This document shows positions 21,379 through 40,317 of a stretch of 64,000 bases of DNA, piece by piece. This stretch comes from Escherichia coli (GTDB lineage: Bacteria > Pseudomonadota > Gammaproteobacteria > Enterobacterales > Enterobacteriaceae): the NCBI RefSeq assembly GCF_013122565.1, contig NZ_CP053258.1; one strand, written 5' to 3'. The stretch's first letter is position 1, and each line of letters begins with the position of its first letter. The notes under the pieces were generated by a model. It ran no database searches and was not told the origin of the DNA. It worked only from the letters and a program-made list of their open reading frames with translations. The position numbers and the translations under genes were made by a program.

Positions 21379-21478
21379 AGAGCTTCCTTTTGGTGTCGCC
21401 TTCACAGGCGTCGAACAGGAGAATCAATGGCGCCGTATAGCGCCATTTTAAGGCCGCGTAGTATACAGAGTTACGCAC

Positions 21479-22099
21479 TTATAAGAAAGGCTTCACATCA
21501 CCTACGCCTTCACGCAATACGACTGGCGTATCATCGGTAAGATCAATAACCGTTGTTGGTTTCTGCCCGAGATAGCCGCCGTGAATGATCAAATCTACCT
21601 GTTTTTCCAGACGGTCTTTAATTTCTTCCGGATCGGATTCGGTAAATTCGCTGCCTGGCAGCATTAGCGAAGTGGAAAGCATCGGTTCGCCCAGTGCTTC
21701 AAGCAAAGCCTGCGCAATCGGGTTAGAAGGCACACGCATACCGATGGTTTTGCGTTTTTCCTGCAACAGACGGCGTGGCACCTCCTTCGTCCCCTTCAGG
21801 ATGAAGGTATAGTTGCCCGGCGTGTTGTTTTTCATTAAACGAAACGCAACGTTATCGACAAATGAATAGGTCGAGAGTTCAGAAAGATCGCGACACATCA
21901 GGGTAAAGTTGTGACCGTCCGGCAGCTGGCGAATACGACAAATACGCTCCATGGCGTTTTTATCTTCAATTTTACAGCCGAGCGCATAGCCGGAATCAGT
22001 TGGATAAACAATCACCCCGCCTTTACGCACGATCTCCACCGCCTGGTTGATCAGACGTTGCTGCGGGTTATCAGGATGAATATAAAAAAACTGGCTCAT
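21479..22099 (-). CDS. yciO: Sua5/YrdC/YciO-family dsRNA-binding protein
   Basis: Start at internal Met giving 206 aa MSQFFYIHPDNPQQ...; ATG overlaps the trpH stop by 4 nt. Confidence 0.88.
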   Translation of the reverse strand: MSQFFYIHPDNPQQRLINQAVEIVRKGGVIVYPTDSGYALGCKIEDKNAMERICRIRQLPDGHNFTLMCRDLSELSTYSFVDNVAFRLMKNNTPGNYTFILKGTKEVPRRLLQEKRKTIGMRVPSNPIAQALLEALGEPMLSTSLMLPGSEFTESDPEEIKDRLEKQVDLIIHGGYLGQKPTTVIDLTDDTPVVLREGVGDVKPFL

Positions 22100-22977
22100 A
22101 ATTCCCTCTCTGTGGTGTTCTGCGGCTGTTCCCATAGCTGCCAGACGCCTTCAACGCCTGCAGGCAGCCAGAGTTTACGACCCAGTTCGATCCACGGGCA
22201 TGGCTGATGAAAATCAGATCCTTGTGATGCCCATAAATGATGCTGACGCGCAAGGGTCGCCAGCTGGGTACGTTCATTGGGCGATTGCTGGCACTGCGCG
22301 ACTTCCATCGCGTCGCCGTGGTGTTCGGCAAAATGCGCAACCAATCTTTTCAGCCATTTAGCACTAAGATTGTACCGCCCAGGATGAGCTAGCACCGCCT
22401 TACCGCCAGAATGATGAATGACATCAATAGCTTGTTCTATTGTACACCACTGTGGCGGAACGTATCCGGTTTTCCCGCGCGCCAGATACTTTTTAAAGAC
22501 ATCCGCCATTGAACTGGCTTTGCCGCACTCCACAAGGAAACGCGCAAAATGACCGCGCGTCACCGCGCCGCCCTGAGCCAGTCGTTGCGCGCCTTCCAGC
22601 GCCCCAGATATTTGCGCTTTTTCAAGTCTTTCGGCAATGAGCTGCGCCCGCTGATTGCGCCGTTCTGTTTGCTGCGCGAGGAACTCACACATTAGCGGAT
22701 GAGTAATATCAATATTCAGCCCGACAATATGAATTTCATGATTTTCCCAGACCGTGGAAATTTCCACGCCGGGAATAAGATTCAGCGCCAGTCCCGAACG
22801 TGAAATTTCCTCTCTTGCTGGCGCGATTGCAGCTGTGGTGTCATGGTCGGTGATCGCCAGGGTGCCGACGCGCATCTCGACTGCACGGTGCACCAATGCT
22901 TCTGGCGTCAGGCAGCCATCGGAAGCTGTGGTATGGCTGTGCAGGTCGTAAATCACTGCGTAATTCGTGTCGCTCAA
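22096..22977 (-). CDS. trpH: PHP-domain phosphoesterase (RNase AM)
   Basis: 293 aa; PHP His/Asp motifs (YDLHSHTTASDG, ITDHDT). Confidence 0.9.
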   Translation of the reverse strand: MSDTNYAVIYDLHSHTTASDGCLTPEALVHRAVEMRVGTLAITDHDTTAAIAPAREEISRSGLALNLIPGVEISTVWENHEIHIVGLNIDITHPLMCEFLAQQTERRNQRAQLIAERLEKAQISGALEGAQRLAQGGAVTRGHFARFLVECGKASSMADVFKKYLARGKTGYVPPQWCTIEQAIDVIHHSGGKAVLAHPGRYNLSAKWLKRLVAHFAEHHGDAMEVAQCQQSPNERTQLATLARQHHLWASQGSDFHQPCPWIELGRKLWLPAGVEGVWQLWEQPQNTTEREL

Positions 22978-23052
22978 GGCGCACTCCCGTTCTGGATAAT
23001 GTTTTTTGCGCCGACATCATAACGGTTCTGGCAAATATTCTGAAATGAGCTG

Positions 23053-23087
23053 TTGACAATTAATCATCGAACTAGTTAACTAGTACG
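23053..23087 (+). promoter_or_regulatory. trp promoter with overlapping TrpR operator
   Basis: TTGACA at 23053-23058, 17-bp spacer, TTAACT at 23076-23081; palindromic operator cgaactagttaactagtacg spans the -10. Confidence 0.85.
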
Positions 23088-23114
23088 CAAGTTCACGTAA
23101 AAAGGGTATCGACA

Positions 23115-23159
23115 ATGAAAGCAATTTTCGTACTGAAAGGTTGGTGGCGCACTTCCTGA
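23115..23159 (+). CDS. trpL: trp operon leader peptide (14 aa)
   Basis: ATG AAA GCA ATT TTC GTA CTG AAA GGT TGG TGG CGC ACT TCC TGA = [14 protein letters not shown], with tandem Trp codons. Confidence 0.9.
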
Positions 23160-23200
23160 AACGGGCAGTGTATTCACCTTGCGTAAAGCAATCAGATACC

Positions 23201-23229
23201 CAGCCCGCCTAATGAGCGGGCTTTTTTTT
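23201..23229 (+). terminator. trp attenuator (3:4 terminator hairpin)
   Basis: cagcccgcc-taatga-gcgggc followed by T8, about 20 nt upstream of trpE. Confidence 0.85.
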
Positions 23230-23250
23230 GAACAAAATTAGAGAATAACA

Positions 23251-24813
23251 ATGCAAACACAAAAACCGACTCTCGAACTGCTAACCTGCGAAGGCGCTTA
23301 TCGCGACAATCCCACCGCGCTTTTTCACCAGTTGTGTGGGGATCGTCCGGCAACGCTGCTGCTGGAATCCGCAGATATCGACAGCAAAGATGATTTAAAA
23401 AGCCTGCTGCTGGTAGACAGTGCGCTGCGCATCACAGCTTTAGGTGACACTGTCACAATCCAGGCGCTTTCCGGCAATGGTGAAGCCCTGCTGACACTAC
23501 TGGATAACGCCCTGCCTGCGGGTGTGGAAAATGAACAATCACCAAACTGCCGTGTGCTGCGCTTCCCCCCTGTCAGTCCACTGCTGGATGAAGACGCTCG
23601 CTTATGCTCCCTTTCGGTTTTTGACGCTTTCCGCTTATTGCAGAATCTGTTGAATGTACCGAAGGAAGAACGAGAAGCAATGTTCTTCGGCGGCCTGTTC
23701 TCTTATGACCTTGTGGCGGGGTTTGAAGATTTACCGCAACTGTCAGCGGAAAATAACTGCCCTGATTTCTGTTTTTATCTCGCTGAAACGCTGATGGTGA
23801 TTGACCATCAGAAAAAAAGCACCCGCATTCAGGCCAGTCTGTTTGCTCCGAATGAAGAAGAAAAACAACGTCTCACTGCTCGCCTGAACGATCTTCGCCA
23901 GCAACTGACCGAAACCGCGCCACCGCTGCCGGTGGTTTCCGTGCCGCATATGCGTTGTGAATGTAACCAGAGCGATGAAGAGTTCGGTGGCGTAGTGCGT
24001 TTGTTGCAAAAAGCGATTCGCGCCGGAGAAATTTTCCAGGTGGTGCCATCTCGCCGTTTCTCTCTGCCCTGTCCGTCACCGCTGGCGGCCTATTACGTGC
24101 TGAAAAAGAGTAATCCCAGCCCGTACATGTTTTTTATGCAGGATAATGATTTCACCCTGTTTGGCGCGTCGCCGGAAAGTTCGCTCAAGTATGATGCCAC
24201 CAGCCGCCAGATTGAGATCTACCCGATTGCCGGAACACGTCCACGCGGTCGTCGTGCCGATGGTTCACTGGACAGAGACCTCGACAGCCGCATCGAACTG
24301 GAAATGCGTACCGATCATAAAGAGCTTTCTGAACATCTGATGCTGGTGGATCTCGCCCGTAATGATCTGGCACGCATTTGCACCCCCGGCAGCCGCTACG
24401 TCGCCGATCTTACCAAAGTTGACCGTTACTCTTACGTGATGCACCTGGTCTCCCGCGTGGTCGGTGAGCTGCGCCACGATCTCGACGCCCTGCACGCTTA
24501 CCGCGCCTGTATGAATATGGGGACGTTAAGCGGTGCGCCGAAAGTACGCGCTATGCAGTTAATTGCCGAGGCGGAAGGTCGTTGCCGCGGCAGCTACGGC
24601 GGCGCGGTAGGTTATTTCACCGCGCATGGCGATCTCGACACCTGCATTGTGATCCGCTCGGCGCTGGTGGAAAACGGTATCGCCACCGTGCAAGCCGGTG
24701 CTGGCGTAGTCCTTGATTCTGTTCCGCAGTCGGAAGCCGACGAAACCCGTAATAAAGCCCGCGCTGTACTGCGCGCTATTGCCACCGCGCATCATGCACA
24801 GGAGACGTTCTGA
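23251..24813 (+). CDS. trpE: Anthranilate synthase component I
   Basis: 520 aa chorismate-binding enzyme; stop overlaps trpD start. Confidence 0.97.
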
Positions 24814-26408
24814 TGGCTGACATTCTGCTGCTCGATAATATCGACTCTTTTACTTACAACCTGGCAGATCAGTTGCGCAGCAATGGTCATAACGTGGTGA
24901 TTTACCGCAACCATATTCCGGCGCAGACCTTAATTGAACGCCTGGCGACGATGAGCAATCCGGTGCTGATGCTTTCTCCTGGCCCCGGTGTGCCAAGCGA
25001 AGCCGGTTGTATGCCGGAACTTCTCACCCGCCTGCGCGGCAAGCTGCCAATTATTGGTATTTGCCTCGGACATCAGGCGATTGTCGAAGCTTACGGGGGC
25101 TATGTCGGTCAGGCGGGCGAAATTCTACACGGTAAAGCCTCCAGCATTGAACACGACGGTCAGGCGATGTTTGCCGGATTAACAAACCCATTGCCGGTGG
25201 CGCGTTATCACTCGCTGGTTGGCAGTAATATTCCGGCCGGTTTAACCATCAACGCCCATTTTAATGGCATGGTGATGGCGGTGCGTCATGATGCGGATCG
25301 CGTTTGCGGACTCCAGTTCCACCCGGAATCCATTCTTACTACCCAGGGCGCTCGCCTGCTGGAACAAACGCTGGCCTGGGCGCAGCAGAAACTTGAGCCA
25401 ACCAACACGCTGCAACCGATTCTGGAAAAACTGTATCAGGCACAGACGCTTAGCCAACAAGAAAGCCACCAGCTGTTTTCAGCGGTGGTGCGTGGTGAAC
25501 TGAAGCCGGAACAACTGGCGGCGGCGCTGGTGAGCATGAAAATTCGCGGCGAGCACCCGAACGAGATCGCCGGGGCAGCAACCGCACTACTGGAAAATGC
25601 CGCGCCGTTCCCGCGCCCGGATTATCTGTTTGCTGATATCGTCGGGACTGGCGGTGACGGCAGCAACAGCATCAATATTTCCACCGCCAGTGCGTTTGTC
25701 GCCGCGGCCTGTGGGCTGAAAGTGGCGAAACACGGCAACCGTAGCGTCTCCAGTAAATCTGGCTCGTCGGATCTGCTGGCGGCGTTCGGTATTAATCTTG
25801 ATATGAACGCCGATAAATCGCGCCAGGCGCTGGATGAGTTAGGTGTATGTTTCCTCTTTGCACCGAAATATCACACCGGATTTCGCCATGCAATGCCGGT
25901 TCGCCAGCAACTAAAAACCCGCACCCTGTTCAATGTGCTGGGGCCATTGATTAACCCGGCGCATCCGCCGCTGGCGTTAATTGGTGTTTATAGTCCGGAA
26001 CTGGTGCTGCCGATTGCCGAAACCTTGCGCGTGCTGGGGTATCAACGCGCGGCGGTGGTGCACAGCGGCGGGATGGATGAAGTTTCATTACACGCGCCGA
26101 CAATCGTTGCCGAGCTGCATGACGGCGAAATTAAGAGCTATCAATTGACCGCTGAAGATTTTGGCCTGACACCCTACCACCAGGAGCAACTGGCAGGCGG
26201 AACACCGGAAGAAAACCGTGACATTTTAACACGTTTGTTACAAGGTAAAGGCGACGCCGCCCATGAAGCAGCCGTCGCTGCGAACGTCGCCATGTTAATG
26301 CGCCTGCATGGCCATGAAGATCTGCAAGCCAATGCGCAAACCGTTCTTGAGGTACTGCGCAGTGGTTCCGCTTACGACAGAGTCACCGCACTGGCGGCAC
26401 GAGGGTAA
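24813..26408 (+). CDS. trpD: Anthranilate synthase component II / anthranilate phosphoribosyltransferase
   Basis: 531 aa; N-terminal glutamine amidotransferase (catalytic Cys in GICLGHQ) fused to PRT domain. Confidence 0.97.
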
Positions 26409-27770
26409 ATGATGCAAACCGTTTTAGCGAAAATCGTCGCAGACAAGGCGATTTGGGTAGAAGCCCGCAAACAGCAGCAACCGCTGGCCAGTTTTCAGAA
26501 TGAGGTTCAGCCGAGCACGCGACATTTTTATGATGCGCTACAGGGTGCGCGCACGACGTTTATTCTGGAGTGCAAGAAAGCGTCGCCGTCAAAAGGCGTG
26601 ATCCGTGATGATTTCGATCCGGCACGCATTGCTACCGTCTACAGAAATTACGCTTCGGCAATTTCGGTGCTGACTGATGAGAAATATTTTCAGGGGAGCT
26701 TTGATTTCCTCCCCATCGTCAGTCAAATCGCCCCACAGCCGATTTTATGTAAAGACTTCATTATCGACCCTTACCAGATCTATCTGGCGCGCTATTACCA
26801 GGCCGATGCCTGCTTATTAATGCTTTCAGTACTGGATGACGAACAATATCGCCAGCTTGCCGCCGTCGCCCACCGTCTGGAGATGGGTGTGCTGACCGAA
26901 GTCAGTAATGAAGAGGAACTGGAGCGCGCCATTGCATTGGGGGCAAAGGTCGTTGGCATCAACAACCGCGATCTGCGTGATTTGTCGATTGATCTCAACC
27001 GTACCCGCGAGCTTGCGCCGAAACTGGGGCACAACGTGACGGTAATCAGCGAATCCGGCATCAATACTTACGCTCAGGTGCGCGAGTTAAGCCACTTCGC
27101 TAACGGTTTTCTGATTGGTTCGGCGTTGATGGCCCATGACGATTTGCACGCCGCCGTGCGCCGGGTGTTGCTGGGTGAGAATAAAGTATGTGGCCTGACG
27201 CGTGGGCAAGATGCTAAAGCAGCTTATGACGCGGGCGCGATTTACGGTGGGTTGATTTTTGTTGCGACATCACCGCGTTGCGTCAACGTTGAACAGGCGC
27301 AGGAAGTGATGGCTGCGGCACCGTTGCATTATGTTGGCGTGTTCCGCAATCACGATATTGCCGATGTGGTGGACAAAGCTAAGGTGTTATCGCTGGCGGC
27401 AGTGCAACTGCATGGTAATGAAGAACAGCTGTATATCGATACGCTGCGTGAAGCTCTGCCAGCACACGTTGCCATCTGGAAAGCATTAAGCGTCGGTGAA
27501 ACCCTGCCCGCCCGCGAGCTTCAGCACGTTGATAAATATGTTTTAGACAACGGCCAGGGTGGAAGCGGGCAACGTTTCGACTGGTCACTGTTAAACGGTC
27601 AATCGCTTGGCAACGTTCTGCTGGCGGGGGGATTAGGCGCAGATAACTGCGTGGAAGCGGCACAAACCGGCTGCGCCGGACTTGATTTTAATTCTGCTGT
27701 AGAGTCGCAACCGGGCATCAAAGACGCACGTCTTTTGGCCTCGGTTTTCCAGACGCTGCGCGCATATTAA
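26409..27770 (+). CDS. trpC: Bifunctional indole-3-glycerol-phosphate synthase / phosphoribosylanthranilate isomerase
   Basis: 453-codon ORF starting immediately after the trpD stop; two TIM-barrel halves. Confidence 0.97.
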
Positions 27771-27781
27771 GGAAAGGAACA

Positions 27782-28975
27782 ATGACAACATTACTTAACC
27801 CCTATTTTGGTGAGTTTGGCGGCATGTACGTGCCACAAATCCTGATGCCTGCTCTGCGCCAGCTGGAAGAAGCTTTTGTCAGTGCGCAAAAAGATCCTGA
27901 ATTTCAGGCTCAGTTCAACGACCTGCTGAAAAACTATGCCGGGCGTCCAACCGCGCTGACCAAATGCCAGAACATTACGGCTGGCACGAACACCACGCTG
28001 TATCTGAAGCGCGAAGATTTGCTGCACGGCGGCGCGCATAAAACTAACCAGGTGCTGGGCCAGGCTTTACTGGCGAAGCGAATGGGTAAAACTGAAATTA
28101 TTGCCGAAACCGGAGCCGGTCAGCATGGCGTGGCGTCGGCCCTTGCCAGCGCCCTGCTCGGCCTGAAATGCCGTATTTATATGGGGGCCAAAGACGTTGA
28201 ACGCCAGTCGCCTAACGTTTTTCGTATGCGTTTAATGGGTGCGGAAGTGATCCCGGTGCATAGCGGTTCCGCGACGCTGAAAGATGCCTGTAACGAGGCG
28301 CTGCGCGACTGGTCCGGCAGTTATGAAACCGCGCACTATATGCTGGGCACCGCAGCTGGCCCACATCCTTATCCGACCATTGTCCGTGAGTTTCAGCGGA
28401 TGATTGGCGAAGAAACCAAAGCACAGATTCTGGAAAGAGAAGGTCGCCTGCCGGATGCCGTTATCGCCTGTGTTGGCGGCGGTTCGAATGCCATCGGCAT
28501 GTTTGCAGATTTCATCAACGAAACCAACGTCGGCCTGATTGGTGTGGAGCCTGGCGGTCACGGTATTGAAACTGGCGAGCACGGCGCACCGCTAAAACAT
28601 GGTCGCGTGGGCATCTATTTCGGTATGAAAGCGCCGATGATGCAAACCGAAGACGGGCAGATTGAAGAATCTTACTCCATCTCCGCCGGACTGGATTTCC
28701 CGTCCGTCGGCCCGCAACACGCGTATCTTAACAGCACTGGACGCGCTGATTATGTATCAATTACCGATGATGAAGCACTGGACGCCTTCAAAACGCTGTG
28801 CCTGCATGAAGGGATTATCCCGGCGCTGGAATCCTCCCACGCGCTGGCCCATGCGCTGAAAATGATGCGCGAAAACCCGGAAAAAGAGCAGCTACTGGTG
28901 GTTAACCTTTCCGGTCGCGGCGATAAAGACATCTTCACCGTTCACGATATTTTGAAAGCACGAGGGGAAATCTGA
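27782..28975 (+). CDS. trpB: Tryptophan synthase beta chain
   Basis: 397 aa; PLP-lysine region HGGAHKTN. Confidence 0.97.
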
Positions 28976-29781
28976 TGGAACGCTACGAATCTCTGTTTGC
29001 CCAGTTGAAGGAGCGCAAAGAAGGCGCATTCGTTCCTTTCGTCACGCTCGGTGATCCGGGCATTGAGCAGTCGCTGAAAATTATCGATGCGCTAATTGAA
29101 GCCGGTGCTGACGCGCTTGAGTTAGGCATCCCCTTCTCCGACCCACTGGCAGATGGCCCGACGATTCAAAACGCCACACTGCGTGCCTTTGCGGCAGGTG
29201 TGACCCCGGCTCAGTGCTTTGAGATGCTGGCACTCATTCGCCAGAAACACCCTACCATTCCCATTGGCCTGCTGATGTATGCCAACCTGGTGTTTAACAA
29301 AGGCATTGATGAGTTTTATGCCGCGTGCGAGAAAGTCGGCGTCGATTCGGTGCTGGTTGCCGATGTGCCAGTAGAAGAATCCGCGCCTTTCCGTCAGGCC
29401 GCGTTGCGTCATAATGTCGCACCTATCTTCATCTGCCCGCCAAATGCCGATGACGACCTGCTGCGCCAGATAGCCTCTTATGGTCGTGGTTACACCTATT
29501 TATTGTCGCGTGCGGGCGTGACCGGCGCAGAAAACCGCGCCGCGTTACCCCTCAATCATCTGGTTGCGAAGCTGAAAGAGTACAACGCTGCACCTCCATT
29601 GCAGGGATTTGGTATTTCCGCCCCGGATCAGGTAAAAGCAGCGATTGACGCAGGAGCTGCGGGCGCGATTTCTGGTTCAGCCATTGTTAAAATCATCGAG
29701 CAACATATTAATGAGCCAGAGAAAATGCTGGCGGCACTGAAAGTTTTTGTACAACCGATGAAAGCAGCGACGCGCAGTTAA
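28975..29781 (+). CDS. trpA: Tryptophan synthase alpha chain
   Basis: 268 aa; ATG overlaps the trpB stop (TGATGG). Confidence 0.97.
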
Positions 29782-37551: not shown

Positions 37552-39376
<1,825 letters not shown>

Positions 39377-39387
39377 CGCTTGCAATC

Positions 39388-39413
39388 GGATGTGACGCAG
39401 CTGCGTCACATCC
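39388..39413. terminator. Perfect 26-bp palindrome between convergent yciU and the channel ORF
   Basis: ggatgtgacgcag / ctgcgtcacatcc, exact reverse complements; starts 12 nt after the yciU stop and contains the TGA stop of the minus-strand channel ORF; no T-run on either side, so terminator function is inferred. Confidence 0.5.
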
Positions 39414-40275
39414 GCTCTTCATTTTCCACATCTACCTTTTCCCTCCCCAGTTCATTGCCACAAATACGACAATACTTCGCATCCTGTGCATGATTTTGGG
39501 TATTGCATTTAGGACAACAGAGAAGTTTTTTAGTCTGTTCAAGTTCGCTGGTGAGTTGCGCAGTAATAATCCCCGTCGGAATTGCAATGACTGAGTAGCC
39601 AATTAAGATTAATACTGAGGCCACCATCCTTCCTGCCTCTGTATGCGGCGTAATATCCCCATATCCAACGGTAGTCACAGTCACTATCGCCCAGTAAACC
39701 GCTGTACCCAACGAGTTAAATCCGTTTGATGCGCCTTCTATAGCGTACATTAACGCCCCAGCGACGATCATCACAATTGCAATAAATGCATAAAAAAGAA
39801 TCAACTGATGTCGGGCATTTTTTATCGCCCGCCATAAACTGTTTAAGGCAGGCATAAAGCGAAGCAGGCGCAAAATTCGCAACGCGCGAATAGCTCTCAT
39901 CGCTCGCCAGGCAAATAAATAAGTAAAACCAATTTCAGGCCATAGCCACATAACATACAGCGGCAAAATGGTGGTCAGATCGATAATTCCCCAAAAGCTA
40001 AAAACATAACTTACCGGATTCGGCCAGCTTAATATCCGCAGGAAATACTCGATGGTGAAAATTAAGGTAAAGAAGAGTTCCACCCAGACAAAGATATGCC
40101 ATTCGTCGTAGGTTAACTGAAATTGCGATCCAATACCGGATTCTATGAAAACAACGCCAACACTTAACAATGCGAGAAAACCAAACAGCGCCTCGCATCG
40201 TCTACCGGTTTTTGTATGCCGATCAAAAAGAAAATGATAAAACCGCTGACGATAGCCTGAAAGTTGTCCTGTCAC
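39406..40275 (-). CDS. Kv-type voltage-gated K+ channel homologue (6 TM, charged S4, TVGYGD filter) with C-terminal Cys4 zinc-ribbon tail
   Basis: 289 aa; GTG start 5 nt after SD GGGAGG; S4 segment RAMRAIRALRILRLLRF with Arg at every third position; acidic countercharges in S2 and S3; pore AIVTVTTVGYGDITP; tail CCPKC...CRIC; not remembered at this position in K-12. Confidence 0.8.
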   Translation of the reverse strand: MTGQLSGYRQRFYHFLFDRHTKTGRRCEALFGFLALLSVGVVFIESGIGSQFQLTYDEWHIFVWVELFFTLIFTIEYFLRILSWPNPVSYVFSFWGIIDLTTILPLYVMWLWPEIGFTYLFAWRAMRAIRALRILRLLRFMPALNSLWRAIKNARHQLILFYAFIAIVMIVAGALMYAIEGASNGFNSLGTAVYWAIVTVTTVGYGDITPHTEAGRMVASVLILIGYSVIAIPTGIITAQLTSELEQTKKLLCCPKCNTQNHAQDAKYCRICGNELGREKVDVENEERM

Positions 40276-40286
40276 CTGCGCCTCCC

Positions 40287-40317
40287 ATGAAAAAGGGCCG
40301 GCAATTGACCAGCCCTT
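40287..40317 (-). terminator. Intrinsic terminator after oppF
   Basis: Minus-strand hairpin AAGGGCTGG-TCAATTG-CCGGCCCTT followed by TTTTT, 8 nt after the oppF stop and directly abutting the SD of the channel ORF. Confidence 0.6.

Follow-up and report, generated by a model that had tools for sequence, protein, structure and literature searches.

A native Escherichia coli trp operon control region carrying a rare base substitution at the foot of its leader pause hairpin

The leaders hisL, leuL, pheL and thrL follow the same logic as the trp leader: each encodes a leader peptide with sensing codons, has a hairpin pause that NusA enhances, and folds into either an antiterminator or a terminator (PMC9291695, PMC1183508). 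In such ribosome-mediated amino-acid attenuators the hairpin pause synchronises the ribosome and the RNA polymerase (PMC9291695, PMC1183508). These leaders differ from trp in their regulatory codons and sequences and in being without a TrpR operator. The trp leader of Bacillus subtilis likewise chooses between an antiterminator and a terminator and shows NusA-stimulated pausing (PMC12288461), but there the sensor is the TRAP protein on (G/U)AG repeats and not a translating ribosome, and the sequence is unrelated. The locus described here, at positions 23053-23229 of the window (the whole stretch of 64,000 nucleotides of E. coli DNA that was analysed), is not a member of the TRAP system.

The locus shares its promoter, operator, leader open reading frame (ORF), segments 1-4, U-run and genomic context with the trp region of E. 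coli K-12 (Rfam RF00513), the system of the Yanofsky attenuation model. It differs from K-12 by a T in place of an A at 23179, with the predicted loss of the closing pair U54-A91. More distant leaders, from Erwinia, Pantoea, Serratia, Sodalis, Rahnella, Pectobacterium, other Enterobacterales and Vibrio, have a common layout in which the leader ORF contains UGGUGGCGCAC, a pyrimidine-G step directly follows the 1:2 hairpin, and a U-run comes after a GCCCGC...GCGGGC terminator. Between the 1:2 hairpin and the terminator their sequences vary widely, and the base corresponding to RNA position +91 is A, C or G, as opposed to U in the locus described here. These relatives were collected with a degenerate leader pattern that gave 78 loci, mostly from Vibrio and distant Enterobacterales and none from Escherichia.

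We conclude that 23053-23229 is very probably the native, functional control region of an E. coli trpLEDCBA operon working in the textbook mode, and that the substitution at RNA position +91 (A91U) is most likely nearly neutral. None of the results speaks against the identity of the element. The region is an already known textbook element to which the single base difference adds a minor footnote, and no new mechanism is suggested. The elements of the locus and its neighbours are as follows.

22096-22977, minus strand: rnm (yciV/trpH), the divergent upstream neighbour, marking the native chromosomal context
23053-23058, plus strand: trp promoter -35 hexamer TTGACA, read directly from the sequence, same in K-12
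23068-23087: TrpR operator palindrome, CGAACTAGTT followed by AACTAGTACG, an inverted repeat of 10+10 nt with 90% complementarity, identical to K-12
23076-23081, plus strand: trp promoter -10 hexamer TTAACT, 17 bp from the -35, same in K-12
23089, plus strand: leader transcription start (+1), placed by identity to K-12 and K-12 numbering
23115-23159, plus strand: trpL leader peptide ORF, 14 codons plus stop, with ATG at 23115 and stop at 23157-23159
23142-23147, plus strand: tandem Trp codons TGG TGG, the sensing codons, trpL codons 10-11
23143-23178, plus strand: hairpin 1:2, the pause and anti-antiterminator hairpin, RNA +55 to +90, from the ViennaRNA minimum free energy (MFE) fold and pair probabilities; first Rfam helix
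23162-23207, plus strand: predicted antiterminator 2:3, RNA +74-78 and following paired with +115-119, from folding with segment 1 masked
23179, plus strand: the single substitution A91U, in the 2:3 loop and at the hairpin 1:2 foot, coinciding with or adjoining the pause site
23202-23229, plus strand: attenuator terminator 3:4, stem at 23202-23222 and T8 at 23222-23229, from a terminator scan; second Rfam helix, same as K-12
23251-29781, plus strand: the regulated structural genes trpE, trpD, trpC(F), trpB and trpA, from the ORF list, with K-12 lengths and no internal stops

Alignment of window positions 23030-23260 to a K-12-type chromosome (L001) gave 230 identical positions out of 231, the sole difference being the T at 23179. 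Over the entire 273-bp rnm-trpE intergenic region this position is likewise the only one that differs from K-12. The neighbouring genes have diverged much further, with 48 differences in the 1563 nucleotides of trpE, 50 in the 1596 of trpD and 12 in the 882 of rnm. One change in 273 bp, where trpE and trpD have diverged by about 3%, points to purifying selection, with a much stronger constraint on the intergenic control region than on its neighbours, and it is the comparison with these two genes that brings out how strongly the control region is conserved. The divergence in the flanks looks natural, being concentrated at third codon positions.

A preliminary description of this DNA had named a -35/-10 promoter with a palindromic TrpR operator over the -10, a 14-codon leader with tandem TGG codons and a terminator hairpin with T8; all of these are present at the positions given above, and the bounds that it chose run exactly from the start of the -35 hexamer to the end of the T8. 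It also regarded the region as well known and not novel, in agreement with the Rfam match, the RefSeq annotation in more than 5,400 genomes and the exact alignment. Its proposal to look for mutations in the leader Trp codons or the terminator stem by alignment to K-12 turned up none, both being identical to K-12. Its statement that the regulatory region is unaltered holds for every element it named but fails at 23179, which lies outside those elements; the same alignment that bore out the canonical region thus revealed one substitution that had been missed. The record is thereby corrected: the control region is not base-for-base identical to that of K-12.

The promoter consists of TTGACA, a 17-bp spacer and TTAACT as in the TrpR-repressed promoter of K-12. 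The operator is a near-perfect palindrome with CTAG half-site cores and lies over the -10, its axis falling between 23077 and 23078, that is between -12 and -11 relative to the start at 23089. On the strength of established knowledge, TrpR is expected to bind at 23068-23087; its gene, trpR, occupies another chromosomal site in K-12. RNA positions are converted to window positions by adding 23088, with the K-12 numbering that puts the AUG at +27-29, the Trp codons at +54-59 and the end of the leader near +141. The reported length of the attenuated trp transcript, about 141 nt, is consistent with a start at 23089 (PMC1183508).

A generic sigma-70 scan did not return the trp promoter, because its rule demands an A as the second base of the -10, which TTAACT lacks. 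We therefore treat the miss as a limit of the scan rule and reject it as evidence against the promoter. Just upstream of the trp -35, the minus strand carries a promoter-like TTCAGA-17-TATGAT at 23016-23044 (9 of 12 matches) that points towards rnm. It could be the divergent rnm promoter, although 0.8 such matches are expected by chance in the stretch. A 12-nt inverted repeat (23082-23093 with 23123-23134, 83% complementary) pairs the start region with trpL codons 3-7 and is also found, with identical sequence, in K-12.

The trpL ORF has the same coordinates as the annotated trpL of the K-12-type chromosome, none of its 45 nucleotides differs from K-12 and the peptide is identical. This short ORF with its tandem Trp codons overlaps segment 1. 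Rfam RF00513 (Trp_leader) matches 23136-23229 with 93.5 bits, where the gathering score is 41 (E = 3.4e-20), covering the full model 1-100 and not truncated, so that a chance resemblance is excluded. The terminator hairpin at 23202-23222, AGCCCGCC-TAAT-GAGCGGGCT, has 7 pairs of which 6 are G-C, and with the T8 that ends at 23229 it forms a G+C-rich hairpin and U-run immediately upstream of trpE, whose ATG is at 23251.

Folding predictions are in keeping with this layout. The 141-nt leader has a predicted energy of -46.6 kcal/mol compared to -33.6 +/- 3.7 kcal/mol for dinucleotide shuffles (z = -3.5), and none of 200 shuffles was as stable. The predicted MFE fold of the free RNA contains both the 1:2 and the 3:4 hairpins, whereas 2:3 is predicted to be mutually exclusive with each of them. 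We mimicked a ribosome stalled on the UGG codons by masking nucleotides 1-70, and a ribosome at the stop codon by masking nucleotides 1-83. With 1-70 masked and a transcript length of 122, before segment 4 exists, the 2:3 pairs are predicted with a probability of 1.0.

From established knowledge of repression, pausing and attenuation, the locus would be expected to work as follows. Trp-bound TrpR on the palindromic operator would block initiation over the -10, and the transcripts that escape would carry the 14-codon trpL. RNA polymerase would pause near +91/92, where hairpin 1:2 has its 3' foot, and move on once the ribosome translating trpL frees it. With little charged tRNA-Trp available, the ribosome would stall on the two UGG codons and cover segment 1, so that the 2:3 antiterminator pairs and transcription continues into trpE. 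With ample Trp, the ribosome would reach the UGA, 2:3 could not form, and 3:4 with the U8 would stop transcription near +141. The A to T change at 23179 would leave this scheme of repression and attenuation intact.

The structural genes trpE, D, C, B and A lie directly downstream of the leader, all intact, with trpE at 23251-24813 and trpA ending at 29781. Of 5,426 complete E. coli genomes, 5,421 carry a homologous stretch of 261 bp, which RefSeq annotates as 'trpL / Trp leader region / trpE'. NCBI lists a protein with exactly this TrpE sequence under WP_171459454.1 / QJU24415.1, with the name Escherichia coli. E. coli chromosomes are collinear with the window over its first 24 kb, and the best identity over this length to any of the 5,426 complete genomes is 98.7%, so that the strain represents a lineage seldom sampled by complete genomes. 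A Shigella origin, which this modest identity had brought to mind, was set aside in view of the E. coli name of the identical TrpE.

A 61-nt query centred on 23179 had no perfect match among 5,422 records and showed 98.4% identity, that is exactly one mismatch, in 56 of 60 evenly spaced rows of the result. The T allele at +91 is found in 0 of the 5,421 complete genomes carrying the region, all of which have A there. A 33-mer with the T allele, GTGTATTCACCTTGCGTAAAGCAATCAGATACC, likewise had 0 matches in the metagenome collection, compared to at least 120 for the corresponding A-allele 33-mer, and we take the T allele to be rare on this ground. The same T is carried by two independently assembled sequencing runs, SRR11451197 (L002) and SRR11451224 (L003), whose flanks are near-identical but not identical to the window; L002 differs from it at 6 other sites in 7.5 kb. 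A91U is a rare, lineage-specific natural polymorphism. Other rare single-base leader variants were found at -24, -21, -16, +45, +52 and +123 in 110 metagenomic copies, which makes the occurrence of one rare variant unremarkable. Other Enterobacterales leaders, with A, C or G at the position homologous to +91, keep the Y-G-C that follows.

Neither the Trp codons nor the 2:3 stem nor the terminator includes position +91. The paused trp leader transcript is reported to be 91 nt long (PMC1183508), so that +91 is at or adjoining its 3' end. In our sequence the upper 1:2 hairpin and the pyrimidine-G step U92-G93 are conserved and the +91 base is changed, the position of the pause being taken from the literature. 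Work by Landick and Yanofsky is said to put the paused transcript at 92 nt. ViennaRNA predicts that U91 weakens hairpin 1:2 from -17.5 to -16.4 kcal/mol with loss of the closing pair U54-A91, and that it strengthens the 2:3 region from -15.6 to -16.8 kcal/mol through a new U91-A103 pair that extends a mini-hairpin in the loop. Hairpin 3:4 is predicted at -14.0 kcal/mol with either allele. The predicted effects are therefore about 1 kcal/mol each way and the architecture is unchanged. In the full transcript the predicted probability of hairpin 1:2 is at least 0.99 and the hallmark pair probabilities are essentially unaffected by A91U. With nucleotides 1-70 masked the 2:3 probability is 1.0 in both alleles, and with 1-83 masked only 3:4 forms, again in both. 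Only in an isolated fragment, 50-122, does the predicted MFE structure flip from 1:2 to 2:3 with U91, and no such flip is seen in the full transcript.

A base that differs from all 5,421 complete genomes could in principle be a sequencing or assembly error in a region truly identical to K-12. Its presence in two runs that were assembled independently effectively refutes this explanation, and we conclude that the T at 23179 is almost certainly not an error. We give equally little credence to an engineered or ectopic copy, such as a vector insert carrying a trp promoter/leader cassette or the deregulated locus of a Trp-producer strain. The trp promoter is common in vectors, and 9 plasmid places were among the matches to the homologous stretch in the collection, but the order btuR-rluB-yciO-rnm on one side and trpLEDCBA-yciGFE-ompW on the other is the full native synteny, collinear with E. 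coli chromosomes, the flanks have diverged in a natural manner mostly at third codon positions, and the attenuator carries no deletion. The differences of TrpE from K-12 (A82T, S94N, E214D, A222T and R445C) are ordinary polymorphisms, distinct from S40F and M293T, which we take to be feedback-resistance changes. Taken together, the synteny, the natural divergence, the intact attenuator and the ordinary TrpE polymorphisms rule out a cassette or producer strain.

Another explanation, with the element itself still canonical, is that A91U is a functional tuning allele of a rare E. coli lineage, one that measurably alters pause duration and/or makes attenuation slightly leakier by raising basal read-through. 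It would act through the altered base at -1 or -2 of the pause site, a weaker 1:2 foot and a more stable 2:3 region. Besides the invariance of +91 in complete genomes and the absence of the T allele from metagenomes, this explanation has in its favour the location of +91 at the pause site, a predicted shift of about 2.3 kcal/mol from 1:2 towards 2:3 and the predicted flip in the fold of the 50-122 fragment. Mutations around the trpL pause hairpin are moreover known to abolish pausing in vitro (PMC9291695). Yet hairpin 1:2 remains the predicted structure of the full-length leader, the 2:3 and 3:4 folds under ribosome masking do not change, and A91U alters neither the upper pause hairpin nor the U92-G93 step. 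Hairpin 1:2 also forms co-transcriptionally, before segment 3 exists, so that a shift in the 1:2/2:3 equilibrium should matter little. The homologous base varies between A, C and G among Enterobacterales, and other natural leaders carry rare variants of their own. We therefore consider a tuning allele unlikely, with a small but appreciable chance that A91U measurably affects pausing or basal read-through, and prefer the view that the substitution is probably nearly neutral.

It is conceivable, though unlikely, that A91U retunes the synchronisation of ribosome and polymerase or the basal trp read-through in this rare lineage, or that it alters the pairing repertoire of rnTrpL. The mRNA of dnaA is among those on which this released attenuator RNA reportedly acts in trans (PMC12612679). 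The rare +91 allele would be a convenient natural variant for work on which sequences the trp pause site requires.

The substitution also turns a presumably untranslated leader-internal AUG (+91-93) into UUG. The frame opened by this AUG runs for about 20 codons and has no obvious Shine-Dalgarno sequence, and we know of no evidence for its translation.

Further differences from K-12 were seen elsewhere in the window. TrpC (trpC at 26409-27770) has 11 amino-acid differences, of which several cluster at residues 76-80, for 25 nucleotide differences, compared to 5 amino-acid differences for 48 nucleotide differences in TrpE; the non-synonymous share is unusually high in TrpC. The gene yciQ, which in K-12 occupies about 2.1 kb between yciO and rluB, is absent, its flanks lying 66 bp apart at 21413-21478. 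The same arrangement without yciQ is found in L002, L003 and many E. coli genomes. Between yciU and oppF the window carries a segment of 913 bp (39375-40287) that is absent from K-12. An ORF on the minus strand of this segment, at 39406-40275, encodes a protein of 289 amino acids that matches Pfam Ion_trans (E = 9.5e-32) and Ion_trans_2, with a TVGYGD potassium-selectivity motif and a weak zinc-ribbon match at its C-terminus.
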